64,000 bases of DNA from a virus: positions 105,967-169,966 of the IMG/VR virus record IMGVR_UViG_3300047089_000244; one strand, given 5' to 3'. The notes beneath the pieces were generated by a model. The model did no database searches. It was not told where the DNA came from and saw only the letters and a list, made by a program, of their open reading frames with translations. Within the stretch, counting starts at the first letter, position 1. Every line of letters begins with the position of its first letter. The translations under genes were made by a program, and so were the position numbers. Of the stretch, positions 16,433-48,214 are shown piece by piece.

Positions 16433-19400
16433 TCATACCTCCGGTTGTGCGTTGATATACTCTTGCGCTCGCTGGAGTAACGCGCTCTTCTCATTGAGAG
16501 TCGGGTCCGCCACCACATCGTTAGTTAGCTGTCGTAGGATTGTACCAACTTGTGGTCCCGGTTTCAAGCCGAGAGCCAAGAGGTCGTTCCCGTTGACGCT
16601 AATCGCCGACTGGGTGGTAGGCGCTCCGGACTGCCGAGACTGCTCCACGAGTTCGCGCATCGTATCAACAGGCGTCTTATAGGACGTATCGATTCCTTTG
16701 CCCTCGTTATCAGCCGCACGGAGCGTTAAGAGGTCATCTGCCGCCTCTCCCGTCTTGTTCAGGAACTTACGAGCCCCCTTAGCACTAGAGAATTGCGGGA
16801 ACATGTGCTGCGAGATCAAGTTGTGAATGTTGCGAATTTTGGTGACCGGATAGTTAAAGGTCTGGCGTAGGCGAGCCTCAGTCATATCCGCTCCGACTTT
16901 GGCGTGGTCGGCTCCCACTGGGACCCCTTCCAGCATGCCCGCGTAGTAGTGTGTCACGCCCGTCGCTGGGTCTATCCATGCAGAAGCGGGCTTGCCCGTA
17001 TCATGCAAGAGAGCAGCTAGGCGCAGGTCTGGATCTTTGGAAGCGCGCGAGACATTATCGAACACATTTAGGCTATGCTCACCTAGTGAATAATTATGGT
17101 GAGGGTTTTTCTGATCATAGTCGAAGTTATTCGCTAGCTCAGGGAAGAGATGTTTGAGTACGCCTGTTTCCTGAGCCAAGCGGAATGCGCCCGCTGGATT
17201 AGCGCTCGTCAGAAGCTTCTCAAGCTGTTGCTTTAGCGCATCAGGTGACTCCTGATCCAGACGGTGAGCGTACTCTTCCATCTCCTTACGCGTCTGCTCG
17301 TCCGGAACCAGTCCGTGGCGGGAGTGCATCGTGAGGGCTCGGACCAAACGTGTTGGGTCCTCATCGAATGATCCTGGGTGAGTAGTCCGTAAAGTATGGG
17401 ACTCAATGTCTCTAGCTCCTCCGTAGGGATCAAGCAATCGCCCCGACGAGTCAAGATCAACGGCCATAGAATTGGCCGTAAAGTCTCGTCGCTGTAAGTC
17501 TTTCTCGATTGGGAGATGATGATCGACTGTGATTTTTCCTTGTCCACGGGTTCCTCCTGATTCGTATGTGTCGGTGCGAGGAAGTGCGATCTCGACCTCT
17601 TGGCCTTTGGTATGATAGCGGTAGACGCCAAAGCGCTTACCCGTAAGATCCACGCGGCCCGGTAGATGCTCCAAGATGTTATTCACGTCCTCGGGCGGAA
17701 TACCCGATACCATAAGATCAATGTCCTTAGGCTCCTTCTGAAGGAGAGCATCTCGCACGGCTCCACCAACGACATAGACCTTACCGCCAGCTTCTTTAAG
17801 AGCTTGTGAGGCCGTCCAAGCAGCACCATCAGCAGCCGTAATCGAACGGATGTATGTGCCTACGTCCGCCGAAGCAACCTTGTGCTTTTCTCCTGTCTGG
17901 CTTTCCATTTCGAGGCTCGTGATCTCTAGTCCTGGGTGACTATAGTACCACAACTGCATCATGTGATATGTGGAGAACGGGATAGTAGTCGTCGTATTGA
18001 TGACCATCTTACCCTTTGGTTCGTAGTATCCCTCCACGATGCCACCTGGTGTAAACTGCCCCATGATGTCTGGAGTACGCATACCGGGGTGGCCTACCGT
18101 GATATAGTCCTTTTCGATGTCGTAGATGAAGGGGATTGGAGCCTGAAGCAAGTCCTTTCCTTCTTTGCCGCCTGCGGCCTCGAAGTGCCACCCCGCTTCG
18201 TTCCTCCATCCAGGACCAATCGGTTGTAGGTGTTCTGGAAGTTGAGAAGTTCCGTCTCTCTGTGCCTGCACGAACTCCTTAACCCGGTTCAAGTGAGATA
18301 CGTCCTCAGGAAGATCATCCTCTGTGATGTATTGGCCCCCGTGTGCGCCTATTTCTGTAGCGTGCTTGCCACGAGGGTCATAGGAGAACGAAGCATGTGG
18401 CCAATTGTTGGGATCTCTCAAAGAGAGATTCATGTCCGCCCCCATTACATGCTGACTAGAAGGATCGTAAACCATATCGTTTTGATCCTCTGATGTGCCC
18501 ATACCTCCCCAGCAATGGTGCATCATGTCCCCCTCTCTACCAACCTCATTCCAGCTAGGCAAATGTCGAATAGTCCACCCATCAGGAAATTGATGAAGAA
18601 TCTCCGTCTGCTCTGGTCCATGTACCTCTTCGAGTTTTGTCTTAAACCGTTGTTGTTGAGGAACGGTCATTCGTCCGAAGTGCCATTTGTCTGATGAAAC
18701 AAAAGCCCCCATCACAGGAATAGCCGTAGGTGTGACGTTGCGCGGTCGCAGTGGCAATGGCTCGTCTTTGTCTTCGATGGTCGGGAAGTGTCCGTCATCG
18801 ATCGGCGCAGCTTTGGGGTCCTGGTGATCCTGCGTATGCATAACGTAGGCTTTGAAATCTGGTAGCGTCTCGTTGCAATATGGGCAGGTGAGTTGACCTT
18901 GGGGCTCGCCATCAAAAGCTTTGCCCGGTTCTGCTTCTGGATCGCCCTTGTCGTATGTGGTCGGCCACTCCTTGTTCTTGATACGATCGTTCATGTCCGT
19001 GCCACCTGGGTACTCTGCAATGCGATACCCAAAGTCATCTGCCCATTCGATTAGTCCCGGCAGAGCAAACGGATTTGGAGGACGGTTGAAACTAGCTGTA
19101 CGACCTACTATCTCGATCTCATCGTGATTACCCCAGAACGGGCGACTGCTGAGCTTAAGCTTACCCTCGCGCCATCCATACCAGTATGACTTCTTGGCTC
19201 CAAAATCATCATGAATTGGTTGACCACTGCTATCTACCAAGCCACCCCACTTCCATCCAACTTGCTTGCTGTAATCCTTCATCATTTTTACTAGCCCGCG
19301 CAAGCCGATGTTGCTCTCGACACTCCAGAGAGCATCACGTCCGCGCACATTGACATACCCAACGGCCATCGGGCCGTTATGATCGGGAGCGATCTGAGCC

Positions 19401-20140
19401 TCTTCTGCCATCTGTTCGTGGTCGTCTACGGGTGAGACTTTGAACTCGCCGTTGCCGAAGATGAACTTATACTCATGCTCAACAGGTTCCTCCATCGAGA
19501 GATTGAGGTCGTCTATCACCGGGTCGTGGAAATCGCGTTGATTGAATTCCTCTTCTGCCTGCGGGCCTTCGCCAGGATACGCGTCGGAACCCGATCCACC
19601 GGAGTCGGCTTGCTTCAGAATCTTACCCTCTAGAGCGGCATTAGCACGTTCGGCAAATAACTGTGATCGCTGAGTGATGTTTGGCGACTGTTCTAGGTCT
19701 TCCCAGTCACGTTTGTCCTGTCCTGGTTGAGGATCACTCTGAATGCGGAAGTCGCGATAGAGAGGATTGGTTGCATGCGTGTAGACAATTGGGCCTGGCC
19801 TATGGCGCATCTGTTCAGGCTCATACTCATAGGGCTCATCCTCCGCGTCTTGTGGGCGCGGCGTACCTTTGACAGGAGTGAAAGCATACTGGTCGCCTGT
19901 GAGATCCACGACGTAATTCCTATCTGGGCTCACCCAGAAGAAGTGACCTTCCTTCTGGCCAATATGTCCGCCGCCGAGCTTGCTCTGAAGCCACTTAGAT
20001 GTAACGTAACAATGTCCAGCGCTCGGCTGTGGATGACCGCGAGAGTCCTCGGGGCGTGTCTCATCTGACCATGCGTGTTCTGCTGCGCGGCGTAGCTCGT
20101 GCAGTTTCTCTTGTGTGATCGTGTCTGGATCAAATCCCAT
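16433..20140 (-). CDS. cca: Multi-module protein ending in a class II CCA-adding enzyme (tRNA nucleotidyltransferase plus HD)
   Basis: VYVVGGAVRDALL...DIDL, DLQRRDFTANSMA, DPYGG, F.EDPTRLVRA, ALLHDTGKP. About 755 aa of N-terminal modules: YunG-like, C2H2 Zn finger, PcfJ-like. Confidence 0.9.
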   Translation of the reverse strand: MGFDPDTITQEKLHELRRAAEHAWSDETRPEDSRGHPQPSAGHCYVTSKWLQSKLGGGHIGQKEGHFFWVSPDRNYVVDLTGDQYAFTPVKGTPRPQDAEDEPYEYEPEQMRHRPGPIVYTHATNPLYRDFRIQSDPQPGQDKRDWEDLEQSPNITQRSQLFAERANAALEGKILKQADSGGSGSDAYPGEGPQAEEEFNQRDFHDPVIDDLNLSMEEPVEHEYKFIFGNGEFKVSPVDDHEQMAEEAQIAPDHNGPMAVGYVNVRGRDALWSVESNIGLRGLVKMMKDYSKQVGWKWGGLVDSSGQPIHDDFGAKKSYWYGWREGKLKLSSRPFWGNHDEIEIVGRTASFNRPPNPFALPGLIEWADDFGYRIAEYPGGTDMNDRIKNKEWPTTYDKGDPEAEPGKAFDGEPQGQLTCPYCNETLPDFKAYVMHTQDHQDPKAAPIDDGHFPTIEDKDEPLPLRPRNVTPTAIPVMGAFVSSDKWHFGRMTVPQQQRFKTKLEEVHGPEQTEILHQFPDGWTIRHLPSWNEVGREGDMMHHCWGGMGTSEDQNDMVYDPSSQHVMGADMNLSLRDPNNWPHASFSYDPRGKHATEIGAHGGQYITEDDLPEDVSHLNRVKEFVQAQRDGTSQLPEHLQPIGPGWRNEAGWHFEAAGGKEGKDLLQAPIPFIYDIEKDYITVGHPGMRTPDIMGQFTPGGIVEGYYEPKGKMVINTTTTIPFSTYHMMQLWYYSHPGLEITSLEMESQTGEKHKVASADVGTYIRSITAADGAAWTASQALKEAGGKVYVVGGAVRDALLQKEPKDIDLMVSGIPPEDVNNILEHLPGRVDLTGKRFGVYRYHTKGQEVEIALPRTDTYESGGTRGQGKITVDHHLPIEKDLQRRDFTANSMAVDLDSSGRLLDPYGGARDIESHTLRTTHPGSFDEDPTRLVRALTMHSRHGLVPDEQTRKEMEEYAHRLDQESPDALKQQLEKLLTSANPAGAFRLAQETGVLKHLFPELANNFDYDQKNPHHNYSLGEHSLNVFDNVSRASKDPDLRLAALLHDTGKPASAWIDPATGVTHYYAGMLEGVPVGADHAKVGADMTEARLRQTFNYPVTKIRNIHNLISQHMFPQFSSAKGARKFLNKTGEAADDLLTLRAADNEGKGIDTSYKTPVDTMRELVEQSRQSGAPTTQSAISVNGNDLLALGLKPGPQVGTILRQLTNDVVADPTLNEKSALLQRAQEYINAQPEV

Positions 20141-20153
20141 CGCTTATTACTAC

Positions 20154-21809: not shown

Positions 21810-22163
21810 TTATGCTCCCGCTGGTGGATCTTGTAAAGGTTGAGGGTTTGATATACCCGCAGGCTGTGGGATTGTTTGAGAATCGAACACCCGCGCAAGC
21901 TGTGAGCCTGCTTGAGCAACTAACCGGCCCTGCTGAACGATCGCGCCATTGAGCGCATTGATCGCCTTGATTGCTGTATGTGTCAAGAAGAAAACAGCAA
22001 GCCCCGCCCACGCAGTCGTAGCATAGCCGAGGAAGAAACTACCCAACGCCATGCTTGTCAAAGTAATATCCGAAATAATCGCCAGGACCAAACCAAATAC
22101 ATAGTTAAAAGCATAGGCTGGAAATTCCTTGAAGATGGAAAGGATAGTTTGCTGTTCTTTCAT
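21810..22163 (-). CDS. Membrane protein
   Basis: Two TM segments. Confidence 0.6.
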   Translation of the reverse strand: MKEQQTILSIFKEFPAYAFNYVFGLVLAIISDITLTSMALGSFFLGYATTAWAGLAVFFLTHTAIKAINALNGAIVQQGRLVAQAGSQLARVFDSQTIPQPAGISNPQPLQDPPAGA

Positions 22164-22657
22164 GTCGTCGCCCCAATGATCGTAGTAGAAGTGTAATGCT
22201 CATCCAGGATAGCAGAACGCGATTCACGGAACTTAGTCAACATTATATTCTGAGCCTGCAATGGAACAAGCGCTGCACCAGTCCGTTGGGCATTACGATG
22301 CAAGGCTTGAGTGGGGTTATCGAAGAAGATCAAGTGCTTCTCTGCACCGTGGTAATCGGCGAGATCCGAGAGCTTCCAACGCGCCTGATAAGCCAACGAC
22401 GTGGCATCAGCAACAGCATCTTCGCCTTCTTCTAGTATCTCACCCAGATGGCGATGGAACTCAGCGAAAACTTCCCCGTTGCGTTTTGCATCATATGGCT
22501 CTCCCGGCCATTTATACTCACGAATCCGATCGCTACTAACGATTGACCACGGCGAAAAGAATGTTCGCGCCCAGGTAGACTTGCCGCTTCCTGGAATGCC
22601 TGCCAAGATGAACAAGCGAGGATTATGTCGTTCAATAGAGAAATCCATAAATTTCAT
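22160..22657 (-). CDS. P-loop kinase, polynucleotide-kinase-like (AAA_33)
   Basis: GIPGSGKST, SSDRIR, VADAT, RNAQR lid. Confidence 0.85.
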   Translation of the reverse strand: MKFMDFSIERHNPRLFILAGIPGSGKSTWARTFFSPWSIVSSDRIREYKWPGEPYDAKRNGEVFAEFHRHLGEILEEGEDAVADATSLAYQARWKLSDLADYHGAEKHLIFFDNPTQALHRNAQRTGAALVPLQAQNIMLTKFRESRSAILDEHYTSTTIIGATT

Positions 22658-25564: not shown

Positions 25565-26887
25565 TTATCGATACTGCTGGTCACGCCATAATAGCGTGCC
25601 GTTTACGTAAGTTGCGTTCTCGATACGGAAGAACCCATCCGGGTGAACCGTAACTGTCGTGAAGCCCTGCTGCCAATCAGGCAGCGGAGTGAAGTTCGGC
25701 CACTTACGTCCCTTAAGTGGCGTCTGATCCACACGACACATGCATCCTGCCTCTGCTGCCGTCAGGGTTGTGATCGCACCATCGATGTCGTGGGTCGTCT
25801 TGTAGATAATCGACTGACGATGCGTATGACCGACGATCACGCTATAGCCCAAGTGTTCGAGAGTAGCGAGCGCGGAAGCACCAGAACCTTGACGAGCAAT
25901 CCATCCATGGCGGACAGCAAGCTTATTGCTAAGATTGATCTGTGCTAGATCATATGCGCCCTTTGGGTCGATATACTCAATACCTAGCTCGTCCAGGCGA
26001 AGCAAGAATGGTAGCCCTAGAGCGACTACTCCCTCCGCCTCCGGTGAATCAGCTTGCTTCGCGCCGTAGAGGGGCTGCATCGATGGCTTGTCAAGCAGAA
26101 TGTTGCGCAAGCGCTCATCGTGATTGCCCGCAAGCTTCCTCATGCGAGCATTTGGTGCTGCTGTACGAATACCACGCAGTAAGTTGTATCCACTCTGCGT
26201 ACACTCATTAACGGTGGCGGTGTTCTCTGGGTCCAGTCGATGTCGGCTGATCTCAGGATAATCCACTGTGTCGCCAAGCAATGCAATCTCATCCGGGTCG
26301 TTCTCTTCGAGCCAAGCACAAGAGAGATAGTAAAGATTCTCGTCATAGAAGGGGGCCTGTTGGTCGCCCATAACAACAATGAGTTTGGTACCTTTGGTTG
26401 AAGCCCTATGGCGTGGAGGGGCTATCCAACCATCAGACCGCGCGGGGATAAGCTGTAGCTCGGGGTGCTTGCGTCTAAGGTTGAGCTTCGCCTGATGGTA
26501 AGTAACCATACCTTCCTCAGCGCTCGGTCCATCCCACTCGTTGATCGTGGCGCTGTCAATGACCCATTCCTCCGGGTCAAGCCCGCGCTCGCGGAGCATC
26601 GCATCGGGATCATCCATCGGGTTAGTCCTGTGAGCGGAAGAGGTAACCTCGCCCTCGTCCCCCGTGATCTTATAGCCAGCGTTAGCGGCTTTGTTGTTGA
26701 CCTCCAGACCGTGCCGTTTGCGAAACCGGCGAATCGACCCCTCGGTTGATTCAACTCGATACTCTGATGCCCAGAGCGCCTTAACTACAGAAGCATTCGT
26801 CTCTCCTCGACCAATCAGATCTTTGACGAAACCAACGATCGGCTCCTGATCAAGCGGACTTTGTTTCTGTGTCGTCTGTTGGGTCAC
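25565..26887 (-). CDS. Calcineurin-like metallophosphoesterase
   Basis: GDQQ, LGD..D, GNHDER, HG and GHTH motifs. Confidence 0.85.
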   Translation of the reverse strand: MTQQTTQKQSPLDQEPIVGFVKDLIGRGETNASVVKALWASEYRVESTEGSIRRFRKRHGLEVNNKAANAGYKITGDEGEVTSSAHRTNPMDDPDAMLRERGLDPEEWVIDSATINEWDGPSAEEGMVTYHQAKLNLRRKHPELQLIPARSDGWIAPPRHRASTKGTKLIVVMGDQQAPFYDENLYYLSCAWLEENDPDEIALLGDTVDYPEISRHRLDPENTATVNECTQSGYNLLRGIRTAAPNARMRKLAGNHDERLRNILLDKPSMQPLYGAKQADSPEAEGVVALGLPFLLRLDELGIEYIDPKGAYDLAQINLSNKLAVRHGWIARQGSGASALATLEHLGYSVIVGHTHRQSIIYKTTHDIDGAITTLTAAEAGCMCRVDQTPLKGRKWPNFTPLPDWQQGFTTVTVHPDGFFRIENATYVNGTLLWRDQQYR

Positions 26888-29435
26888 TCTTATCCTTTGA
26901 ATCGAGGTCTATATCGTAATCGATATCTGCGTGCAAATCGTCAATGATCGAATACTTCTTCGATTGTTCAATGAGAATACGGCTCTTGGTTGGAGTTTCC
27001 ATAATGATCTCATCGTTACTTGCTGTCTTCTGAAGCTCTTGGTTTCTCTTTAGTATGAATTCCTCGTCTGGCTTTGCCAGTGTAGCATCCGTCTTTGTTT
27101 CAGTGACGGAGGTCGTCAGTGTAGCAGCTATCTCATCCGCCACTTGCCTCTGGTACGTAGCCGCATACTTTGGCCACTCAACGTAAAGATCACCAATGGC
27201 CTTACGTGAGATTTTCTCTAGATCCCCTCCGTGGTAGCTGTCCTCCAGATAATCTACGAATGGCAGACCGAGATCCGGGTACTCATCAAGGAACTTGTCT
27301 AGCTCTGAACCCTCTGCCACACTTAGGCGCGTAGTACCATCGTTGGACGTGTTGTAGGTCAGTCCAGGACGACGCTCGTTACTCACTTGTGGTACGGAAC
27401 CCGCTGGACCCGGCTGCATCGGGGACGTTGCTGGTGGTCCGCCCCCTGGAGGCGCTGTACCCGGTCCTGATCCCAAACCTGGGGGTGCAGGCGGCATAAC
27501 GATAGCTTCGCCTCCTGGGCCTGCTCCTGGACCTCCTGGAGGACCTCCTGCACCAGGACCGCCCGGTGGTGGCCCACCCATGCCCTGTGTGGCCCCTTGC
27601 GGTGCTCCGCCACCTGCACCAGGACCGTGGATAAGCACAGACTCACACTCGGCCTTAAGATCGAGCGGTACCGGCAAACCTTTGATCGTGAGCGCGTAGT
27701 AGGTCTCCATCTTCGCTTCCTGCTGCGCGATCGTCTGCTCCTTCAACTCGGTGTTATACTCATTGATCTTGTCCTTGTACTTCCAGTCCACACCAATGAG
27801 CAAATCTGCATTTGGCAGCGGTACACCCATCTGACGTAGCTCCATGAGGAACTGACGCTCAGTTGCCTCATCGCGTAGGTCAAAGGTTGCGAAGGTAAGA
27901 TCCGGTACGAGAAGCTTCGGAACCTCCTTAATTTCCTTGTTGCCTTCGTCGTCATATACCACAACGCGCTCGAAAATCGGTACGCGAGTCTGACCCTTTT
28001 TCTCATAGTCCTGATGACCTTGTGCCTCAGCGACAACAAGAGCACGCTCACGGTAGTGAGCCTTGAGCATGTTCTGGAACGTCTTAAGAATCTGGTTCAT
28101 GAACTCAGCTTGGAGCGCGCTCGATGCATATGGCTGCGAATTCGAACCAGCAGATAGGAGAGACGGGTTGACGCCAAAGACCTGCATGATGCGACGCTCG
28201 ATGCGATCGAAATCATCACCAAGACGGGGCATCTGCTCCCGCCCGAAGACTGACGTGATGTCGAGACCGAAGTGATGCACCATGAGACGGAAGTCAGATG
28301 CAAGCGCAATATCAAGATCATCACGCACAGACTCAAGCTCGGCAGGCGTCGGAATCCATGGAGGTAGACCCTCGCCCATGTCCATGATACCGAGCTTGGC
28401 TAGAATGAGCGGTGAATACAAACGCTCAGCAATAGCTTCCTGAGATGCGAGAAGCTTTTCCTCATAGAGGAGCGTACGCAGGCCGCGCAGAAGGATCGGC
28501 GTGCCGTGATCATCCCAGTTGTTCATCTTGTTAGCAACCTGACGGATCATCACTGGAGAGATAGGGATATGCTCGCCCTTGAGTAAATATGGAATGAGAT
28601 CCGCGTAATTCTCCTGGAGCATGTACCACTCGCGTGCAGGGCTCTTGGTCTGAGCGATGCGACGCAGGTAATCGGGCGGAACGATCTTCAACTGCTGTGT
28701 GTTGAGGAATGGGAAGTTGTCAATCACCACGTCCTCCGGGTTAATCAACTCCTCATGCTCCCAGACGCCGAGATCCTCATCAAACGAACCGAGAGGAAAT
28801 GCCTCGCCAACACACCAATACTCGCGACCCAGCGAGACGAAGAACTCGTCATAGCTGAGGTTACGCATGAAAATCTCCTCATAGATATCTGTCAGCGCGT
28901 GATCCTTGCATTCAAACTCCATGCCGATAAGTGGAAAGCGTGTGAAAATGTCGATCAGCGTCGGAACTAGATAATGGGTGGCGTAGTACAGGCGCAGCCA
29001 CTTGTGAAGCTTGTGTCGATGTCCCTCGTCTGCGACGTTCCACGGGAGGCCCGAAAGGTCCCAATACTCAAGGGGATCATAGAAGCGCGGGATCGCGTTC
29101 TGCGCATCAGTGCCGCTCGGAGAGACGCTAGCTGCTGTGCGCTGCATTCGTCTTGAAAGAGTGCGTTTCTCACCCATAGCCTGAATCTTGGACTGGTTCT
29201 CCTTGAGCATACGCTGAACCTCCGGAGAATTCAAGTTATCTGCCGTGATCGATTTACCGACGCTATATGACAAATTATCTAGACTTACTCCAGCGGCCTT
29301 CTGAATCGCGCGTGTTTGTGTTACCGCCTCTCCGTATGACTGCGCAGCCCGACCAGAGTGACGTGGCATAACAAGTCCATTACGACGCAGCCGCGCCAAC
29401 TCTGCATCCAATTTTTGCTGATCAAGATCGGCCAT
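26850..29435 (-). CDS. Portal protein with long G/P-rich C-terminal extension
   Basis: IDIFTRFP, GEAF, HGTPILLR.LR.L..E..L and IMQVFGV..SLL portal-like core; near terminase. Confidence 0.75.
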   Translation of the reverse strand: MADLDQQKLDAELARLRRNGLVMPRHSGRAAQSYGEAVTQTRAIQKAAGVSLDNLSYSVGKSITADNLNSPEVQRMLKENQSKIQAMGEKRTLSRRMQRTAASVSPSGTDAQNAIPRFYDPLEYWDLSGLPWNVADEGHRHKLHKWLRLYYATHYLVPTLIDIFTRFPLIGMEFECKDHALTDIYEEIFMRNLSYDEFFVSLGREYWCVGEAFPLGSFDEDLGVWEHEELINPEDVVIDNFPFLNTQQLKIVPPDYLRRIAQTKSPAREWYMLQENYADLIPYLLKGEHIPISPVMIRQVANKMNNWDDHGTPILLRGLRTLLYEEKLLASQEAIAERLYSPLILAKLGIMDMGEGLPPWIPTPAELESVRDDLDIALASDFRLMVHHFGLDITSVFGREQMPRLGDDFDRIERRIMQVFGVNPSLLSAGSNSQPYASSALQAEFMNQILKTFQNMLKAHYRERALVVAEAQGHQDYEKKGQTRVPIFERVVVYDDEGNKEIKEVPKLLVPDLTFATFDLRDEATERQFLMELRQMGVPLPNADLLIGVDWKYKDKINEYNTELKEQTIAQQEAKMETYYALTIKGLPVPLDLKAECESVLIHGPGAGGGAPQGATQGMGGPPPGGPGAGGPPGGPGAGPGGEAIVMPPAPPGLGSGPGTAPPGGGPPATSPMQPGPAGSVPQVSNERRPGLTYNTSNDGTTRLSVAEGSELDKFLDEYPDLGLPFVDYLEDSYHGGDLEKISRKAIGDLYVEWPKYAATYQRQVADEIAATLTTSVTETKTDATLAKPDEEFILKRNQELQKTASNDEIIMETPTKSRILIEQSKKYSIIDDLHADIDYDIDLDSKDKSDPTDDTETKSA

Positions 29436-39150: not shown

Positions 39151-39197
39151 CTATTCTCTACCAGGATGATCCTGGATTATCGCGCCCGTAAGTAAAG

Positions 39198-39266
39198 TCG
39201 CTCGTGCAGGAATCGAACCTGCGCCTGAAGATTATGATTCTCCTTGGCACCCATAGCCTACGAGCG
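39198..39266 (-). tRNA. tRNA-Met/Ile2 (CAT), reduced D-arm
   Basis: CGCTCGT/ACGAGCG acceptor; loop ATCATAA; TTCGATT. Confidence 0.65.
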
Positions 39267-39412
39267 TGGATTTCACCTACCGCTTGCACGGATCATCGGC
39301 TACTCAATGTAACACGCCGTCTACGTACTCCCTAATCCGGGGTGCGGTACGTAGCAAGGACAACGTGAGTTAGGTTCGATCCTCCGCTGTCGCAAAGCGG
39401 TACGTAACCATA

Positions 39413-39484
39413 AGCGTATAGCCGGGCTCGAACCGGCGACCCAAGCTTGGAAGGCTTGTGTGTTACCAACTACACTATACACGC
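39413..39484 (-). tRNA. tRNA-Gly (TCC)
   Basis: Full cloverleaf. Confidence 0.9.
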
Positions 39485-39489
39485 ATAAA

Positions 39490-39936
39490 CTACTTACGCA
39501 AGAAAAACTTGTGCCTTTTAGACCCTCTGTAACCCGTATCTGGGAGACCACCAGGGGTCATTTTCATCTCAGGATTTTTCTCTCGGTAGAGTTTGAACTC
39601 CTGAAACGTCGCTGCCGTGTGAGGATCGTCGCGATCTACAACCTCGACGCCAAGCGCTGTGACTGAGTGAGGGCGGATCTCCGTGTGACCCTCATCGATG
39701 ATGAGCTTCGTCTTGAAGCCTCGCTCCTCGATATAGTGCTTGATTACCATCAGGTGCATGTCATCCTCTGCCAGCATCACGAGCTTGCAGTAGTGACCGC
39801 CCTTGTACCAATCTGCAAGCAGATTGGGGTCGCTGATCCGGTACGCCTCGACGGCTGCATGCTGCCCCTGAGCAGTCATCTTGCCCGAGGTCATTCCGAG
39901 ACTTCTATTGATGAAGCTATACATGGCTGTTCGCAT
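39490..39936 (-). CDS. pth2: Peptidyl-tRNA hydrolase, Pth2 type
   Basis: M..GK..AQ..HA, KLV, IDEGHTEI...S.TALG; ATG 6 nt after TGATAGACT. Confidence 0.9.
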   Translation of the reverse strand: MRTAMYSFINRSLGMTSGKMTAQGQHAAVEAYRISDPNLLADWYKGGHYCKLVMLAEDDMHLMVIKHYIEERGFKTKLIIDEGHTEIRPHSVTALGVEVVDRDDPHTAATFQEFKLYREKNPEMKMTPGGLPDTGYRGSKRHKFFLRK

Positions 39937-40157
39937 GCACATAGTCTATCACAGAGGCTTGCGCGGTGGGAACACTTCGGACTTTGGTCCTACTGACCGC
40001 AGTCTCACTCGCGTTCACCGCGCAAGCTGTCTCCGAGCAGGGTCTCCGCTGAACGAACGTAGTGTATCACAAGTGCGCCCGCCCAGTTTGACCCAGACGC
40101 GCGCATGAGGACCCGAGGTCACCCAGCCGAACTGAATATGCCCGAAGCTAAGGTCCA

Positions 40158-40229
40158 AGCCTACACTCAGAATCGAACTGAGTTCTCTAGTTTACAAGAC
40201 TAGCGCGTCACCACTTACGCTTTGCAGGC
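40158..40229 (-). tRNA. tRNA-Thr (TGT)
   Basis: Full cloverleaf. Confidence 0.9.
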
Positions 40230-40235
40230 ACATCA

Positions 40236-40579
40236 TGTAGTCGATAAGCCGGATTCTGTCGTTGGACGATCATCCTTCTCAGTGGCGTGCCGACTAGGCC
40301 CAACGACCCTTTGGCGCTTGAGCTAACCCGAGGTCTCACACGATTCCACTGGTCCCCATGTTACCGGGGACTGCTCCCACCAGCTAATGCCATAGGCAGA
40401 GCCCTTAGGCTTCGACACTTGGGATTGCATCTCTCGGCTTCGTATGCGGTCATAGCGGCCTAAGCCTCCCGCCATCCACGTCACCTATCCAGCACCCCTT
40501 GTGAGGGATCTGAGTTTCCCCAGACGAGATGTCCGGACTTTCCTCGGAGGGATCGGACCTCCGCGATCGTCTGACTACA
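40236..40579 (-). ncRNA. rnpB: RNase P RNA (divergent)
   Basis: CR-I GAGGAAAGUCCGG (40545-40533), CR-V ACAGAAUCCGGCUUAU (40259-40244), P1 UGUAGUC/GACUACA, P2 GACGAUC/GAUCGUC, P3 GGAGG/CCUCC, P5-like CAUCUC/GAGAUG-CAA. Confidence 0.92.
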
Positions 40580-40679
40580 GGATCATGATGGGATTCGAAC
40601 CCACACCTGGGCACTCGCCTCTGCCAATTGATCCACTTACAGAGTTCCGTACGCTTCTGCAAGCAGGCCCTACATGATC
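40580..40679 (-). ncRNA. tRNA-like RNA with acceptor and T arms only
   Basis: GATCATG/CATGATC and GTGGG-TTCGAAT-CCCAT; no canonical D or anticodon arm. Confidence 0.6.
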
Positions 40680-40827
40680 ACCAAGCTTTCTCAGTCGCAC
40701 CCTGACACAACTCGACCCGCCAGAGGCGGGCCGGAAGTGAGGGAACGACCCTCGAACGACTTTCAAGCACTTGTTATATAGCAGGAATCGAACCCGCTAA
40801 GGGATATCCTTAGATAATCTTTAGAAA

Positions 40828-40917
40828 CGGTACCGTGGGGATTCGAACCCAACCGCCTCGTTAGAGCGATTTCCCGCTTGAAAGGCGTTCTGCACTCCAA
40901 AGTGCTTTCATGGTACC
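40828..40917 (-). tRNA. allo-tRNA/tRNA-Sec-like fold, anticodon TTC
   Basis: 9-bp acceptor with one mismatch, 3-bp T stem, GCACT-TTGG-AGTGC D arm, long V arm, G73. Confidence 0.5.
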
Positions 40918-40934
40918 CTGTGGTCGAACAGGTG

Positions 40935-41297
40935 TCAAGAGCCGTGTGTACGCTCCCGGTGGCAGTTCGAGCAAACGACCTCGCACTTGTCGATCTCCTC
41001 CTGGATAACTTCCAGGCGATATCGTTGTGCTACGAGCCAATTGACACTGCCAAACTTCTCCCCACGTACATGATCGAAGTCCATGACGTAGGGCGGATAC
41101 TGGACCCCGCAGTCGGCACAAGGAACTTCCTTTTGCGCGTTGATGTGCGCCATGATCTCAGCACGTTTGTTTGCCGCCCAGGTGTTGCGCTTGATCTTCC
41201 ACTCGGATAGCTGGTGCTCCGCGAGGTAGCGATCCTTGTTGCGCTGGTAACTCCGTTGTTGAGCGGCGCGCTGCTTGCCTTTGTCCTTGTACGGCAT
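40935..41297 (-). CDS. HNH endonuclease
   Basis: CADC...MDFDH...KCEVVCSNCHRERT. Confidence 0.9.
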   Translation of the reverse strand: MPYKDKGKQRAAQQRSYQRNKDRYLAEHQLSEWKIKRNTWAANKRAEIMAHINAQKEVPCADCGVQYPPYVMDFDHVRGEKFGSVNWLVAQRYRLEVIQEEIDKCEVVCSNCHRERTHGS

Positions 41298-41329
41298 GCA
41301 CATTACACACCAGGATGGGTTCACTTCCA

Positions 41330-41402
41330 AGCAGCAGATGGGACTCGAACCCACAACCTCCACCTTGGCAAGGTGGCGCTCTAGCCATTGAGCTACTACT
41401 GC
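41330..41402 (-). tRNA. tRNA-Gly (GCC)
   Basis: Full cloverleaf. Confidence 0.92.
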
Positions 41403-41606
41403 GCGTGCGACTCGTTTCTTCGCGAGGAGAGTCACCATCCCCGTCCATTTTTATCCGCCCTACGCTTCGCTTGTCCCCGGAGGGGCGGGTTTCAAACCGC
41501 GCTTATCGTGTATATGGGCCTTCTACGAAGTGAGTAGCTCATCACGAACGGGACGCGCGAAGGTCGTCGTGAACTTCCTCCAGCAATGACCGCATTATGA
41601 GCTAAG

Positions 41607-41631
41607 TCCCCCGTGCTGGAGTCGAACCAGC
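41607..41631 (-). pseudogene. tRNA 3' remnant (T arm plus acceptor strand), Arg-like
   Basis: GCTGGTTCGACTCCAGCACGGGGGA, near-copy of the 3' end of the tRNA at 42108. Confidence 0.6.
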
Positions 41632-41634
41632 CTA

Positions 41635-42189
41635 CTATGAGCTTCCACGATGCCATCTCATTGTAAGTCCAGGCACCGAAGAAATGCAAGCTCGCCAGTA
41701 ACCACCCACAAAGGCCGTTCGTTTCCGATGGCAGTTCGAACAGAGCACATCGCACTTGGCAATCTCAGTTTCTATCGTTGGCACATCGTAACCTGATGCA
41801 GTCATGTCAGACACCGCAGCAACCTTCTGACTGGGGTCGCGATGATCAAAGTCAAGCACAACCGGATCAGACTCGCCACAATTGATACAGGGATGCTTTT
41901 GAAGGTAGTCCCAAATCCATGCTTGCGCGCGCTCCTGAACAATCCTTTTGCGAGCTTTCGTCCTTGCTTTGATACGATCCTTGTTCCGTAAATAGTGCGC
42001 GTCTGAAACGATCTTCTGACATGCTTTACAGTGAGCTTGATGTTTGTCGCCTTTGGTAGCAAACTCTTTGAGTGGCTTCTCAAGTTCGCATTTACCGCAG
42101 ATCTTAGTCCCCCCGGCTGGAATCGAACCAGCGACGGTCGTGGATTCGAAGTCCACCGCTCTGTCCTCTGAGCTACGAAGGGTTGTCAT
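41635..42189 (-). CDS. HNH endonuclease whose 5' end contains a tRNA gene in frame
   Basis: KICGKC...CKAC, CINCG...LDFDH...CDVLCSNCHRKRT; no in-frame start between tRNA and first CxxC. Confidence 0.75.
   Translation of the reverse strand: MTTLRSSEDRAVDFESTTVAGSIPAGGTKICGKCELEKPLKEFATKGDKHQAHCKACQKIVSDAHYLRNKDRIKARTKARKRIVQERAQAWIWDYLQKHPCINCGESDPVVLDFDHRDPSQKVAAVSDMTASGYDVPTIETEIAKCDVLCSNCHRKRTAFVGGYWRACISSVPGLTMRWHRGSS
42108..42182 (-). tRNA. tRNA-Arg (TCG)
   Basis: Full cloverleaf, 75 nt. Confidence 0.88.
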
Positions 42190-42218
42190 ACCTATTATCA
42201 TCGCGTATTGACTTCGAA

Positions 42219-42401
42219 TCAGGCATGAGGTTCGAAGTCCCACCAACGTCGCATAGTTTCAAGAGCGACCTCGGCAATATCTCGATATTCGTCACGGACC
42301 TCTTCGTGCGCTTCGAGCCAAGGTATAGCTCGCGCAGAAAAGTCTTTCTCCTCAGCCTCATAAATGGCTTGAGCTACTCGCTCTATCAATTTCGTCTCCA
42401 T
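42219..42401 (-). CDS. Small hypothetical protein
   Basis: IERVAQAIYE...W......RDEYRDIA..AL pattern typical of small phage proteins. Confidence 0.6.
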   Translation of the reverse strand: METKLIERVAQAIYEAEEKDFSARAIPWLEAHEEVRDEYRDIAEVALETMRRWWDFEPHA

Positions 42402-42442
42402 TTAGATTCGAAGTCTCAGGTCCTCATCCGTAGGACAGGGGA
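42402..42442 (-). pseudogene. tRNA-Arg(TCG) 5' half remnant
   Basis: TCCCCTG, D-like GTCC..GGAC, loop CTTCGAA; no T arm. Confidence 0.45.
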
Positions 42443-42444
42443 AG

Positions 42445-42520
42445 GACTCCTGGCTGTTTGCGACAGCATCTCCCACTTAAAAGGCGGGGCTCTATTGCAG
42501 GCACTTTGAGCTACAGGAGG
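42445..42520 (-). tRNA. Atypical tRNA-Lys (TTT)
   Basis: Loop CTTTTAA; 15-nt D loop; T arm GCTGT-CGCAA-ACAGC lacks TTC. Confidence 0.55.
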
Positions 42521-42522
42521 AG

Positions 42523-42595
42523 TGGGTCGTCCCGGACTCGAACCGGGAATTGTCTCCTTAAGAGGGAGGTGCTCTTACCATTTAGCTAACGACCC
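42523..42595 (-). tRNA. tRNA-Lys (CTT)
   Basis: Full cloverleaf. Confidence 0.9.
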
Positions 42596-42704
42596 AAAAA
42601 CCCCGGCTCTCACGGTCACGCACACGAGCCGCTTATCAGGCGACGCTCGCATACCATCCCGGTTCCACCGGGTCTGGGAACCGCATTTCGGTTCCGAGGC
42701 TTAG

Positions 42705-42777
42705 TCCCCTTGACTGGATTTGAACCAGTGACTTCCTCCTTCGCAGGGAGGCACTCTATCCACTGAGCTACAAGGAG
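42705..42777 (-). tRNA. tRNA-Arg (GCG)
   Basis: Loop CTGCGAA, A20. Confidence 0.9.
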
Positions 42778-42844
42778 AGGTAAAGCGAGTATTTAGCGCC
42801 CTCGCTCACGGCTGTCTCTAGCATGGCCAATGGCCAAAGCCAGA

Positions 42845-43450
42845 TCATCTTGAAAACTTGTTTTCCTGCCAATCATGCAAGAGCGTATACTCATACGAGC
42901 TTGGATCACCACCGATAATCAAATCAAAGAGGACTGGTCTTACGTCCTTCAAGCTTTCGATCAGATGGTCAGCAATATCGCACTCCGCCTTTGTGAGATA
43001 TGGAGCAATAGATTTGTTGCTCTGCCCGTCTCGGAGATGTAAGGCTCGGTGCCAGCCGATACAGGCCGGGATCGTGCAATAGGACCGAGGTGCATAGTTG
43101 ATGTAGTCCGGAAGCTCCAGCATCAACCAACGTGGCACAAAATGGTGCCGTGTGATGGCACCTTCGCAATCCTTCGGCTCGTCGTGGTAGCGACAAACTA
43201 AAGGGCGCTGCGTAGCTAGGGCGCGAGCCTTCTTCTGTTCGATGATCTTGTGCGGTATCAGTCCGCTATTGTGATTGAGTCGCCAGAGTACAGCACGGGT
43301 AGAGAGACGTTCATCAAGAAGATCATCGATCTCCGCGTCCTCCATTTCCGCAAGCACTTCTAGCTGCTCAACAGTAGCTTCTGAGTCATAGGAATCGAAC
43401 CAAAAGACCTCTCCCGTGACAGGATGTGTCCAGTCTCGTGCTCGTGACAT
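42845..43450 (-). CDS. Hypothetical protein with HNH-like motif
   Basis: C...C...TRHHFVP...C..WH..LH. Confidence 0.6.
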   Translation of the reverse strand: MSRARDWTHPVTGEVFWFDSYDSEATVEQLEVLAEMEDAEIDDLLDERLSTRAVLWRLNHNSGLIPHKIIEQKKARALATQRPLVCRYHDEPKDCEGAITRHHFVPRWLMLELPDYINYAPRSYCTIPACIGWHRALHLRDGQSNKSIAPYLTKAECDIADHLIESLKDVRPVLFDLIIGGDPSSYEYTLLHDWQENKFSR

Positions 43451-43487
43451 ACCTATAGTATACAGGGTATGTCAAGGTTCGAAAAAG

Positions 43488-43562
43488 TAGCCCGTGCGGG
43501 ATTCGAACCCGCGTTCACGCGGCCTGAGAAGCCGGTATCCTAAACCACTAGACCAACGGGCC
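43488..43562 (-). tRNA. tRNA-Glu (CTC)
   Basis: Full cloverleaf. Confidence 0.88.
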
Positions 43563-43623
43563 ATAAAGCTATCTGGGCGAGGTACGGATCTATTGAGAAT
43601 CCGCTGTCATTCCAGATAGCAAG

Positions 43624-43696
43624 TACTCCTCCCAGGACTCGAACCTGGAACCATTCGCATATAAGACGAAAGCTCTAACCATTGAGCTAGAGGAGC
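43624..43696 (-). tRNA. tRNA-Ile (TAT)
   Basis: Loop CTTATAT. Confidence 0.88.
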
Positions 43697-43706
43697 ATGC
43701 GGCCCC

Positions 43707-44066
43707 TCACAAGGAGGGACCGTTAATTGCTTCACAGGTGCTAGACAGCAAACGGGGCGTTTGTTCCTTGAACTTTTCGCCTCCGTAAGATGTTTCATTG
43801 TGAGACTGACTCGACCAGGTTATTTCACCACCCCGATACGGTTTTCTCTGATACCATTCTTCCCAGTACCACGGATACCGGCGGGCCGGGATGGGTACAG
43901 AATAGGGCTGAGGTACTGGCCTTGAAGCCAACTCCGCCTTGAGTAAACGAATACAGTCATCGGTTGTCGGGTCCTTGCCGTGACTATGCCACGAGAGCCC
44001 ACAAATAGAGCAAATCGTTGAAACGGCGATTGGCTCAGGTTTTGTTAATTTCTTTCGTGCTGCCAT
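43707..44066 (-). CDS. Hypothetical Zn-binding protein
   Basis: CSIC...H...C. Confidence 0.55.
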   Translation of the reverse strand: MAARKKLTKPEPIAVSTICSICGLSWHSHGKDPTTDDCIRLLKAELASRPVPQPYSVPIPARRYPWYWEEWYQRKPYRGGEITWSSQSHNETSYGGEKFKEQTPRLLSSTCEAINGPSL

Positions 44067-44301
44067 GATTTTCTACAGAGAGGCCCGAAGACATTTCACC
44101 GCGATTGACTCGTTTTTCGGTCATTCCACCCCAAACATGACCTCGTGCAGAATCGAGTGCTTTACCCGCTGACGAAGTGGTCATATTCAATGCTTGACCA
44201 ATCTGGGGAACCGTATTACCATCAAAGTACATCTTGAAGGCTTCGTATTCCGTCGCGTTGAGACAGTACACAGCTTCTATGTCTTGCCTCCCCATTTTCA
44301 T
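44035..44301 (-). CDS. Small HTH (sigma region 4/LuxR-like) protein
   Basis: LNATEYEAF...G.TVPQIGQALNMTTSSAGKAL; AGGAGG RBS. Confidence 0.6.
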   Translation of the reverse strand: MKMGRQDIEAVYCLNATEYEAFKMYFDGNTVPQIGQALNMTTSSAGKALDSARGHVWGGMTEKRVNRGEMSSGLSVENHGSTKEINKT

Positions 44302-44335
44302 CCTCCTTTAGGACGTTTTGGTTTGAGTACTACAG

Positions 44336-44408
44336 GGTGGCCAGAGGGAATCGAACCCTCATCGCCGGGATCACAACCCGGAGTTCTAACCGTTGAACTA
44401 TGGTCACC
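44336..44408 (-). tRNA. tRNA-His (GTG)
   Basis: G-1:C73; full cloverleaf. Confidence 0.92.
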
Positions 44409-44412
44409 ATGA

Positions 44413-44506
44413 TGCGCCAGAGAAGACGCGACCCTCCTGTCCTTCGGCTCGGGGGCCTGTGCTAGCACAACCCACTGTCCGCTGCTCCGCTCTGAGCTAC
44501 TGGCGC
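44413..44506 (-). ncRNA. tRNA-like RNA with elongated anticodon arm
   Basis: GCGCCAG/CTGGCGC-A and GCTC/GAGC D arm; long interrupted stem capped by CTAG; non-canonical T loop. Confidence 0.6.
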
Positions 44507-44507
44507 A

Positions 44508-44581
44508 TATCCCCTCTCGGATTCGAACCGAGACTGTACTGGGCTTAAACCAGTTCCCTCTGCCAGTTGGAGTAAGGGGAC
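44508..44581 (-). tRNA. tRNA-Leu (TAA), short variable loop
   Basis: Loop TTTAAGC. Confidence 0.82.
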
Positions 44582-44588
44582 AAGATAG

Positions 44589-44659
44589 ATGGAGAACAGG
44601 GATTCGAACCCCGATTGAGAGCTTCAAAGGCTCCGGTCTTGCCATTAGACGATTCTCCA
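44589..44659 (-). tRNA. tRNA-Gln (TTG)
   Basis: Full cloverleaf. Confidence 0.9.
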
Positions 44660-44736
44660 AAGTAATCGGCGCGGATATCCACGGGTTAGGGGGCGAGAAC
44701 CTAATCTCTTGCGCTAAACCGCCTTGTACCGATTAG

Positions 44737-44807
44737 CTGGAGAACAGGGACTCGAACCCCAATGACAACGCTCAGAACGTTGCATCTTGCCATTAGATGA
44801 TTCTCCA
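44737..44807 (-). tRNA. tRNA-Gln (CTG)
   Basis: Full cloverleaf. Confidence 0.9.
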
Positions 44808-44814
44808 AAGTACA

Positions 44815-44887
44815 TAGCAGACCCGAGAATCGAACTCGGCTCTCAAGCTTATGGGGCTCGAATGGTCGTCCAGACCACCTGTCTGCA
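44815..44887 (-). tRNA. tRNA-Met (CAT), 1:72 mismatch (initiator-like)
   Basis: Loop CCCATAA, U1.U72, 5-bp D stem. Confidence 0.7.
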
Positions 44888-44889
44888 AA

Positions 44890-44973
44890 TGCCCACCGGG
44901 AGATTCGAACTCCCACACCTTTTCAGATAGCGCCTTTTGAGGACGCCGCGTCTACCATTCCAGCCAGGTGGGC
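44890..44973 (-). tRNA. tRNA-Leu (CAA)
   Basis: Long V arm. Confidence 0.9.
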
Positions 44974-45040
44974 GTATTTATGATAATTGCCTTGTGCACG
45001 CGAGGCAAATTTTTCCGAGGCGGGACTTCCTTCCTCAGAA

Positions 45041-45112
45041 TTGGAATACTAGGACTCGAACCTAGAATACCACCGTATCAGAGTGGCGTGATAACCATTT
45101 CACTATATTCCA
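45041..45112 (-). tRNA. tRNA-Ile (GAT)
   Basis: Full cloverleaf. Confidence 0.88.
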
Positions 45113-45113
45113 G

Positions 45114-45185
45114 CGGATCTGAGAGGAATCGAACCTCTGACGCGCGGTTCTTCAAACCGCCGCTCTACCCCTGAGCTACAGATCC
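45114..45185 (-). tRNA. tRNA-Phe (GAA)
   Basis: Full cloverleaf. Confidence 0.92.
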
Positions 45186-45189
45186 AGGG

Positions 45190-45441
45190 TTACTTCTTGA
45201 CACGAGTAATCTCCTCAAGGTCGTCATAAAGCTTAGGTAGGTTCTCCTCGAACGCACACTCTAAGCATTTGCCAATCTTGGGCAAAGCTCTCTTTGTACA
45301 ACCCGATTCACTACAAACGCCGGGCCTCATGAATTGTGGGATGTTAATATCTTCTTCATTCATTTTGCGTATCCTGAAAAGGTAAAAAAGTAAGATAGCC
45401 CCTCCTAGAAGGAGCCCTTGTTTCATATACCCAGTCATCAC
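45190..45441 (-). CDS. Small membrane-anchored Zn-binding protein
   Basis: TM segment then C4 motif. Confidence 0.5.
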   Translation of the reverse strand: MMTGYMKQGLLLGGAILLFYLFRIRKMNEEDINIPQFMRPGVCSESGCTKRALPKIGKCLECAFEENLPKLYDDLEEITRVKK

Positions 45442-45473
45442 TCGTTATACAACGGGTGATGCAAGAAAATGAG

Positions 45474-45492
45474 CGGAAGGTGAAGGAGTCAA
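45474..45492 (-). pseudogene. tRNA-Ser-like 3' remnant
   Basis: GACTCCTTCACCTTCCG overlapping the HNH stop. Confidence 0.45.
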
Positions 45493-45845
45493 GGATTAGG
45501 AGAACGACTACTATTGCAACGCAAGTGAGAGAAAGCAATGTTCTCCATATCCCAAAACAAATCCGCATCGACACCCAACCAAGATTGCTTATGCTCAATA
45601 CTTAAATCAGATTCATTCTCAATGATCCCTCCGCAATGAAAGCAAACATTCCGATCGGTATCACAAACGAGCATAAAAAGAACCTTCTTGCGCAATCTAT
45701 GCGCTGCGGTGCCCCATGGCATACCCAACTGTTCCGCCTTCTTCAGGTGGCTTTTCGACGGAATCACCGTCCCGTCAGCCTTACGTTCCTTGTAACGACG
45801 TGCATTATATTTACGCACGGCCTCTTTATCCCTGGATACGGGCAT
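45489..45845 (-). CDS. HNH endonuclease
   Basis: CFHCG...LSIEH.....ENIAFSHLRCN. Confidence 0.85.
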   Translation of the reverse strand: MPVSRDKEAVRKYNARRYKERKADGTVIPSKSHLKKAEQLGMPWGTAAHRLRKKVLFMLVCDTDRNVCFHCGGIIENESDLSIEHKQSWLGVDADLFWDMENIAFSHLRCNSSRSPNP

Positions 45846-45864
45846 ACGGAATAGTATATCATAA

Positions 45865-45948
45865 CGGAAGCGTAGAGAGTCGAACTCTAGAGGGCTCATC
45901 ACCCCAGGCGGGTTCAAACCGCTGTCCTCAGCCAACCGGATCACTTCC
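45865..45948 (-). tRNA. tRNA-Ser (TGA)
   Basis: Long V arm, G73. Confidence 0.82.
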
Positions 45949-46006
45949 AAGGGGGTCCGTCCGAGAGCCTTGTTCAGGCCGGGGACGGCTGCCCCGTTGA
46001 GTTGAG

Positions 46007-46077
46007 ACGCGACGGCGAGAATTGAACTCGCGTAGGCGGGTTTGCAATCCGCTGGATGGCCTCTATCCTACGTCGCG
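46007..46077 (-). tRNA. tRNA-Cys (GCA)
   Basis: U73; full cloverleaf. Confidence 0.88.
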
Positions 46078-46083
46078 ATGAAG

Positions 46084-46154
46084 CTGGAAGGCTCGGACTC
46101 GAACCGAGAATACCTGGTTAACGGCCAGGTGTGATGCCATTTCACTACCAACCA
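46084..46154 (-). tRNA. tRNA-Asn (GTT)
   Basis: Loop CCGTTAA; two U.U in acceptor. Confidence 0.8.
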
Positions 46155-46313
46155 ATGTTGTACTGGTACGCCTCGGCTACTTATTGTCGGTTTCGTGTAG
46201 GTACGAGATCCGAGTTGACCGACCTCTCGGTCGAGCTATCGACTTACCACCCGTCACCCGTGTACACATCCAGCTTGGGCCGGGAATGACCTACGACCAG
46301 TACGGTACTACAG

Positions 46314-46399
46314 CGGAAGGGGTGGGATTCGAACCCACGGTGGCTCTCGCCACACTGCCTTAGCGGGGCAGCACAATAATCCATCTCTGCCACCCTTCC
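46314..46399 (-). tRNA. tRNA-Ser (GCT)
   Basis: Long V arm; loop CCGCTAA. Confidence 0.9.
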
Positions 46400-46482
46400 A
46401 GGTGCGCCAGTGTCAGTTGATCCATAGCCTGGCGCATCCACAGTTATGGCCGCTTGCTTTCCCTGCATGCTGGTACTTGCAA

Positions 46483-46557
46483 AGCCCCTAGCGGGATTCG
46501 AACCCACGCAGTGCATCGCTTAGGAAGCGACCGCTCTATCCTCTGAGCTATAAGGGC
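46483..46557 (-). tRNA. tRNA-Arg (CCT)
   Basis: Full cloverleaf. Confidence 0.9.
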
Positions 46558-46733
46558 ATACTATCGGCGAGGGAAACGAGGAGCACCCGTATCTTTAGTA
46601 ATTGACTTAAAGATTTTCGCCACAAATGTTAAAACTATAAATAGCCAAAGAAAATAGAACACTAGGCATGTGATACCTACTATTAGTAGTATCAAAAAAG
46701 CGACATGTTTTCCTTTGGTTGGGGTGCAAAAAG

Positions 46734-47079: not shown

Positions 47080-47323
47080 ATGTACCTGCCACGAATCGGG
47101 CAACAATCCCTATCCGCAGGTCCTACAGGGGAGGGAATCCCATCCTGTAGCTGATGCTTGCGGGCGAGGCTAGATAGCACCTCGCCCGCCGACATTACTC
47201 GACTGACTCAGTACTGCTGGATCACCCCCTAAGTTGAAAGGACAAGACACCTAAGGCAGGTACGCCTCCTCGGTTCTAGAAACCGAGCACCCTTACATCT
47301 TGTGGTGACGTTTAAGGTGTCAG

Positions 47324-48206: not shown

Positions 48207-48214
48207 TATACCAA

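Follow-up and report, generated by a model that had tools for sequence, protein, structure and literature searches.

The window analyzed here is a 64,000-nucleotide stretch of viral DNA (positions 105967-169966 of the 169,966-bp IMG/VR record IMGVR_UViG_3300047089_000244, which was rated complete by CheckV), and its source is a large soil phage of actinobacteria. On its minus strand we analyzed an uninterrupted open reading frame (ORF), P0001, which comprises 1235 codons with zero internal stops and six modules. We consider it likely that P0001 is a CCA-bearing variant of the phage polyvalent proteins, which serves in the completion and repair of tRNA 3' ends and carries separable accessory modules (Table 1). 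The preliminary description of this DNA had proposed an intact class II CCA/HD enzyme preceded by approximately 755 amino acids (aa) of unrelated modules. Both parts of this proposal were confirmed: all catalytic motifs of the enzyme are present in residues 757-1235, and the preceding region holds a YunG-like module, a C2H2 finger, and a PcfJ-like module, the last of these scoring below the Pfam cut-off. An assembly or frameshift artefact was ruled out because the identical architecture recurs in hundreds of independent assemblies.

The C-terminal module was assessed by comparison with domain models, homologous sequences, and solved structures. The Pfam domains of the enzyme, which reached their cut-offs, are the PolyA_pol head (residues 788-918, 90 bits), the PolyA_pol_RNAbd neck (946-1004), the HD domain (1020-1117; 30.5 bits versus a cut-off of 22), and the tRNA_NucTran2_2 tail (1176-1223). 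In addition, the module matches PHROG 2244 (tRNA nucleotidyltransferase) with an E-value of 1e-62. In an alignment of the CCA domains from 69 family members (41-91% identical), motif A (GGAVRD, 792-797) and D806-x-D808 were invariant, as were the R, R, D, N, D, R, and R residues of motif B (RRDFTAN, 884-890) and motif D (EDPTRLVR, 927-934). The PRTD element with its 14-residue flexible loop aligns with the loop of the 1MIV structure and is equal in length to that of the Bacillus stearothermophilus enzyme; its P and R are also invariant. The same was observed for the HD-site residues H1015, H1022, H1046-D1047, H1079, H1112, and D1144, so that the signatures GGxVRD, DxD, RTD, RRDxxxN, and D..R..R and the H/HD/H/D residues are invariant throughout the alignment. 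The top-scoring curated models are CCA enzymes, with the actinobacterial model TIGR02692 reaching 198 bits across positions 19-452 of 466. Among solved structures, the CCA-adding enzymes of Thermotoga maritima (3H37) and B. stearothermophilus (1MIV) come closest, and motifs A-D and the full-length loop align to them. Because all class II signatures are present and the best models and solved relatives are CCA enzymes, we interpret the module as a genuine CCA-adding enzyme with presumed CCA specificity. The C-terminal 480 residues would thus form a working class II enzyme of the actinobacterial head-neck-HD-tail type.

The presumed substrates of this enzyme are encoded in the same genome. Altogether, 38 tRNA genes were identified, 37 in the minus-strand array and one on the plus strand. 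The earlier claim that the array tRNAs and the transfer-messenger RNA (tmRNA) lack an encoded CCA held true, since the CCA end is encoded by none of the 38 tRNA genes nor by the tmRNA gene. The supposed need of the phage tRNAs for such an enzyme was likewise borne out, as all of them and the tmRNA require post-transcriptional addition. In most phage tRNA genes, and likewise in the sampled host tRNA genes, the discriminator is followed by C-T (window 39197-50453; L030-L045). The gene may thus itself template the first C of CCA, with the T perhaps indicating where the 3' end is processed. The enzyme is predicted to add the missing CCA to the tmRNA and to all 38 tRNAs, and its HD phosphohydrolase site would probably also heal damaged tRNA 3' ends. 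Besides the Pnk-like kinase, the genome encodes a metallophosphoesterase and an RNA ligase. The RNA_ligase gene (PF09414, 45 bits) was found at 51172-51918 on the minus strand, beside the tRNA array, and a ClpP-family protease is encoded at 52374-53087, adjoining a ribonucleotide reductase gene.

Comparison of the architectures of homologs revealed that the fusion is recurrent, that its modules are shuffled, and that some relatives have free-standing CCA genes. A profile-free search of 1.84 billion representatives found 233 representative proteins matching the N-terminal 770 aa, and a word-indexed search found 301 clusters (679-2162 aa) matching the whole protein, most of them with CCA domains. 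The fusion was carried by one Solirubrobacter genome and by metagenomic phage contigs, the largest of them 172 kb long. Among 50,697 phage records, neither megablast of the gene nor tblastn of residues 1-770 gave a match; 386 cultured or deposited phage records matched the enzyme part alone (at most 39% of the query), and the N-terminal modules were present in none of these. More than 60 architectures were distinguished in the family, and the tally obtained with module profiles includes A-B-Zn-D-CCA (52 proteins), B-Zn-D-CCA (34), A-B-Zn-x-D-CCA (22), D-CCA (9), and the A-B-Zn-PcfJ-D-CCA arrangement of the window (3). Close relatives fall into size classes of free CCA enzymes (about 470-510 aa), D-CCA proteins (about 600-700 aa), and long fusions, and the B-Zn-D-CCA core persists in proteins of 35-85% identity. 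The inserts found among relatives are GNAT acetyltransferases, a LigT-like 2H domain, and PcfJ. In 12 of the 139 full CCA domains, further modules follow. Among these is the module that begins the next large gene of the window (13596-15284, minus strand; 562 aa), and the first ~245 aa of this gene product are fused right after the CCA domain in other phages, for instance in P0091, P0099, and P0133. Thus, the CCA domain can also be internal, and both genes belong to a single shuffling unit.

The polyprotein gene is broken exactly at module junctions in four relatives (L010, L047, L048, and L011). In L010, the chain ends in HKVA followed by a stop codon, a 198-aa HNH/EndoVII gene (12408-13004, PHROG E-value 4e-17), and a free 497-aa CCA gene whose product is 83% identical to the domain in the window. 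The D/CCA junction of L047 holds a different 240-aa ORF (4288-5010) with a weak Pfam HNH_3 match, and in L048 the D-bearing and CCA genes are just 38 nucleotides apart, leaving a scar-like gap at the same junction. In L011/L012, a 172-aa HNH gene (L011:9475-9993, PHROG E-value 1e-21) splits the chain behind the zinc finger. The free CCA enzymes of close relatives are 486-497 aa long. The splits thus reveal the points at which the chain is breakable, and they show that the CCA enzyme also exists by itself in a free-standing form. Two further features were observed in L010 (1-1470 and 1442-3718): the portal gene product (1557 aa) carries intein/LAGLIDADG domains, and the phosphoesterase gene exceeds its counterpart in the window by about 300 aa. 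Therefore, selfish elements are dense in this region.

The 756 residues upstream of the enzyme consist of separable modules with putative accessory roles, which are shuffled between related phages: a probable Cys-His-Asp thiol enzyme is accompanied by alpha/beta modules, by a zinc finger and a PcfJ-like module, and by the constant companion, module D. Three confident blocks were obtained when residues 1-480 were modeled with AlphaFold on the basis of 41 homologs. The first of these (residues 1-135) corresponds to module A, in which His66 and Asp79 are invariant and Cys44 is at least 90% conserved in the 41 sequences. The YunG family (PF24585, cut-off 27) was matched at residues 13-108 with 28.2 bits for the whole protein and 31.4 bits for residues 1-210. 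The fold of module A matches 2hly (Z 7.0), arylamine N-acetyltransferase (5.2), SseI (5.1), protein-glutaminase (4.9), and LapG (4.7). All of these best structural neighbors belong to the papain/transglutaminase superfold, with scores of just Z 4.7-7.0, and therefore the modeled module A was graded as only a probable thiol hydrolase or transferase. Module B forms another confident block (residues 220-375) with a weak, generic gelsolin/ADF-like topology (Z about 4), and no match to it was found in Pfam, PHROG, or NCBIfam; searches of PHROGs and NCBIfam gave zero matches for any N-terminal module. The zinc finger has the classical spacing C419-x2-C422-x12-H435-x3-H439, in which C419, C422, and H435 are invariant in the 41 homologs, and the Pfam zinc-finger matches to residues 412-443 were non-significant.

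The PcfJ-like module was found in three of the full-length architectures tallied. The Pfam PcfJ match (PF14284) in P0001 is weak (15.9 bits, E-value 0.012, under the 25-bit cut-off), and the aligned modules in P0110 and in the L013 protein pass this cut-off with 35.5-35.9 bits. Accordingly, the relation of residues 485-630 to PcfJ is probable but indirect, being drawn through these aligned sequences. The same residues are 34% identical to residues 770-916 of a 1390-aa polyvalent protein (P0002) encoded in the same genome, which also contains Acb1/2H and cREC modules.

Module D was predicted with high confidence (predicted local distance difference test, pLDDT, >90). K754-V755-A756 closes its last β-strand directly before the CCA domain, in agreement with the preliminary description, which had placed KVA at the junction; model confidence falls immediately afterwards. 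K754 is at least 90% conserved in the module D alignment. Structural comparison of module D with VIA-align gave a best Z of 5.2 to a weak gelsolin/ADF-like topology and no confident relative. Foldseek searches against PDB with both structural models and, for module D, against BFVD returned nothing at E ≤ 0.001 and no viral match. Modules B and D have no sequence similarity by BLASTP or profile search, and a jackhmmer profile built from module D failed to extend to the repeats found in the 1390-aa protein. Module D precedes nearly every CCA domain tallied, either directly or across an insert, and extra modules enter between the two exactly at residues 754-759. It also adjoins other modules without CCA. 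A complex prediction for module D and the CCA domain scored 0.01 and was counted neither way.

Table 1. Modules of P0001 and associated genes of the window (positions in the 64,000-nucleotide stretch).
Feature	Position	Strand	Remarks
Whole ORF P0001, 1235 aa	16433..20140	minus	modules A-B-Zn-PcfJ-D-CCA
Module A, YunG-like, residues 1-150	19691..20140	minus	Cys44-His66-Asp79 triad
Module B, two alpha/beta sub-domains, residues about 215-380	19001..19498	minus	pLDDT 80-90
C2H2-type zinc finger, residues 412-443	18812..18907	minus	beta-beta-alpha in model
PcfJ-like module, residues 485-630	18251..18688	minus	rare insert
Module D, residues 660-756, conserved 100-aa alpha/beta domain	17873..18163	minus	accompanies CCA domain
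K-V-A junction, end of module D	17873..17881	minus	relatives have stop codons, HNH insertions, or extra modules here
Class II CCA-adding enzyme (predicted) with HD domain, residues 757-1235	16433..17872	minus	
Pnk-like P-loop kinase (AAA_33)	22160..22657	minus	in gap-free gene run upstream of the ORF
Portal gene	26850..29435	minus	6.7 kb upstream in transcription direction
Large terminase (TerL) gene	32517-34649	minus	12 kb upstream
37 tRNA genes and tmRNA gene (46733-47079), presumed substrates	39197..50453	minus	without encoded CCA

The P0001 ORF closes a gap-free gene run that includes the Pnk-like kinase, and the order portal, metallophosphoesterase, kinase, orf222, orf255, polyprotein, orf562, and orf462 is kept in L010, L011, and L013. 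The 255-aa gene directly upstream of the polyprotein (20154-20921, minus strand) is present in all relatives at 45-70% identity, with a weak IBR/zinc-ribbon match (E-value 7.5e-4). In a promoter/terminator scan of positions 13000-30500, the counts were not above those in shuffled sequences, and a check of the D/CCA junction of P0001 for a Shine-Dalgarno-like internal start yielding a free CCA enzyme found none. The portal protein shares 39-41% identity with its counterparts in Bxz1-like mycobacteriophages and in Rhodococcus phages E3 and Finch. In phage E3, LigT, a LysM-like protein, the prohead protease, and the capsid gene lie within 3 kb after the portal gene, whereas the prohead protease and major capsid homologs of the phage studied here are located about 86 kb beyond it (C1 43012-47383). 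The interval from portal to protease is thus greatly enlarged, and it is here that the polyprotein genes are found; the locus of P0001 and its homologs is invariably downstream of the portal gene. This interval holds polyvalent proteins, including a 1832-aa ORF at C1:49420-54918.

One host lineage was identified through L013, a locus in a 602-kb contig of Candidatus Solirubrobacter pratensis that encodes a 1534-aa homolog of P0001, a PcfJ-bearing protein of >2258 aa, and an array of 32 tRNAs without CCA. The 23 chromosomal tRNA genes sampled from this organism likewise lack CCA. Its own 455-aa CCA-type enzyme (L014:1480-2847, minus strand) is 26% identical to the phage domain. The 455-aa protein has no flexible loop between motifs A and B, and a second, 412-aa paralog was found in L016; from these sequence features, the two proteins may represent a split pair of CC-adding and A-adding enzymes.

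The function of the chain as a whole was considered in the light of several explanations. In one of them, which builds on the injection suggested in the preliminary description, P0001 would be a late polyprotein that is packed in the phage head and cut at K-V-A-type junctions by the prohead protease or by module A; its CCA/HD enzyme would be injected along with the DNA and repair tRNA 3' ends attacked by defense toxins ahead of phage gene expression. The location of the gene, which in a conserved order comes after the portal and before the prohead protease/capsid genes, would agree with this, as would the packaging predicted for portal-linked multi-domain proteins (PMC5512222), the protease-like Cys-His-Asp triad of module A, the conservation of the K-V-A motif, and the existence of defenses that block the tRNA CCA end, namely CapRel/toxSAS (PMC9712102) and MenT (PMC10435456). 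However, none of the family members checked carries a fusion to a MuF, portal, or capsid-targeting module, and close relatives encode the CCA enzyme without the N-terminal chain. The position of K-V-A in the last β-strand of the folded module D means that its conservation needs no protease, and the LigT and gp76 genes in the corresponding interval of Rhodococcus phage E3 are absent from the genes annotated as structural. We regard this explanation as unlikely, and similarly improbable are putative virion delivery and protease processing of the chain when considered as such. An extended version seems slightly more doubtful: a head-packaged "cargo train" would be cut at the junctions and injected with the DNA, bringing the repair enzyme together with the thiol enzyme and a PcfJ-like effector against toxSAS/CapRel and MenT-type toxins. 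If true, this would be the first injected tRNA-repair enzyme, and virion delivery would mean that phages pre-arm themselves against tRNA-end-targeting immunity.

Another explanation is that the chain stays uncut in the cytoplasm as an integrated tRNA-processing machine, in which the N-terminal modules, above all module D, would act in cis with the CCA enzyme to bind tRNA or to serve in regulation or quality control. The near-constant position of module D before the CCA domain speaks for it, together with the many relatives that are just D-CCA (about 633-700 aa) and the persistence of the B-Zn-D-CCA core over a wide range of identities. Nevertheless, inserts of 100-1000 aa are tolerated between module D and the CCA domain, a gene boundary parts the two in L010, L047, and L048, and module D, which also occurs beside other modules without CCA, has no recognizable RNA-binding fold; we judge such a machine to be rather improbable. 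The nucleotidyltransferase could also have other RNAs as its targets and be a poly(A) polymerase, or else add only A or only CC, given that class II enzymes of differing specificity share all motifs, that the pcnB model also gives 130 bits, and that the solved relatives include several A-adding enzymes or poly(A) polymerases. This is very unlikely in view of the top scores and full-length coverage of the CCA models, the conserved flexible loop and RTD element for the C-to-A switch, the tRNA_NucTran2_2 tail, and the 39 CCA-less substrates encoded nearby. Some results weigh against a polyvalent protein dedicated to tRNA 3'-end completion and repair. The scores for TIGR02692 (198 versus 438.8 bits) and NF009814 (143 versus 290 bits) are below the equivalog cut-offs, the former so far below that specificity is not readable from the model. 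The polyvalent-protein hallmarks MuF and zincin peptidase were not seen in P0001 or in the five long relatives scanned, and no function was assigned to modules A, B, and D or to the PcfJ-like module. Finally, the host lineage possesses a CCA-type enzyme itself, and the phage copy is hence not obviously needed. This counts mildly against a need for the fusion, as do the free CCA enzymes of close relatives and the failure to find a MuF, portal, or capsid-targeting module in the members checked. Since the phage enzyme duplicates an essential host function, its presence points to capacity, host independence, or counter-defense.

Homing endonucleases create genes-in-pieces in large phages, such as the split nrd genes of T4-like phages. 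The splits described here resemble them in having an HNH gene inside a coding region and two expressed halves. In contrast to the nrd genes, the present cuts fall at domain junctions, and reassembly of the halves is not required. Repeated splitting by HNH genes marks sites that are cuttable without loss and thus provides a ready-made domain map.

The phage domain shares the head, neck, HD, and tail order of the bacterial class II CCA enzymes (TIGR02692, the multifunctional Cca of Escherichia coli, 3H37, and 1MIV), as well as their catalytic motifs, flexible loop, and HD metal ligands, but the phage protein differs from them by 756 extra N-terminal residues and by scores under every equivalog cut-off. 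Stand-alone phage tRNA nucleotidyltransferases (PHROG 2244), known from Vibrio, Escherichia rV5-like, Cronobacter, and jumbo phages, likewise occur in tRNA-rich large phages and are 22-33% identical to the domain of P0001. A survey of jumbo phages lists CCA enzymes as stand-alone repair genes only (PMC7824862). Phage CCA enzymes and phage polyvalent proteins are thus each known, and the CCA enzyme as a standard chain module is not part of the main text of the polyvalent-protein paper, in which the terms CCA, YunG, and PcfJ do not occur (Iyer, Burroughs, Anand, de Souza, and Aravind, 2017; PMC5512222). The hallmark domains of polyvalent proteins (MuF, zincin-like peptidase, ART, methylase, SNF2, and ParB) were found neither in P0001 nor in the five long relatives scanned, whereas the sister protein P0002 has Acb1/2H. 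The family with its hundreds of clusters defines the unnamed domains B and D and a YunG-like thiol enzyme, all linked by fusion to tRNA 3'-end chemistry. Its likeness to the polyvalent proteins (PMC5512222) lies in the long chains of unrelated, shuffled enzymatic modules, in the portal/terminase-linked position of the gene, and in the common 2H, GNAT, and peptidase-like module types, with GNAT and 2H occurring in the P0001 family as inserts.

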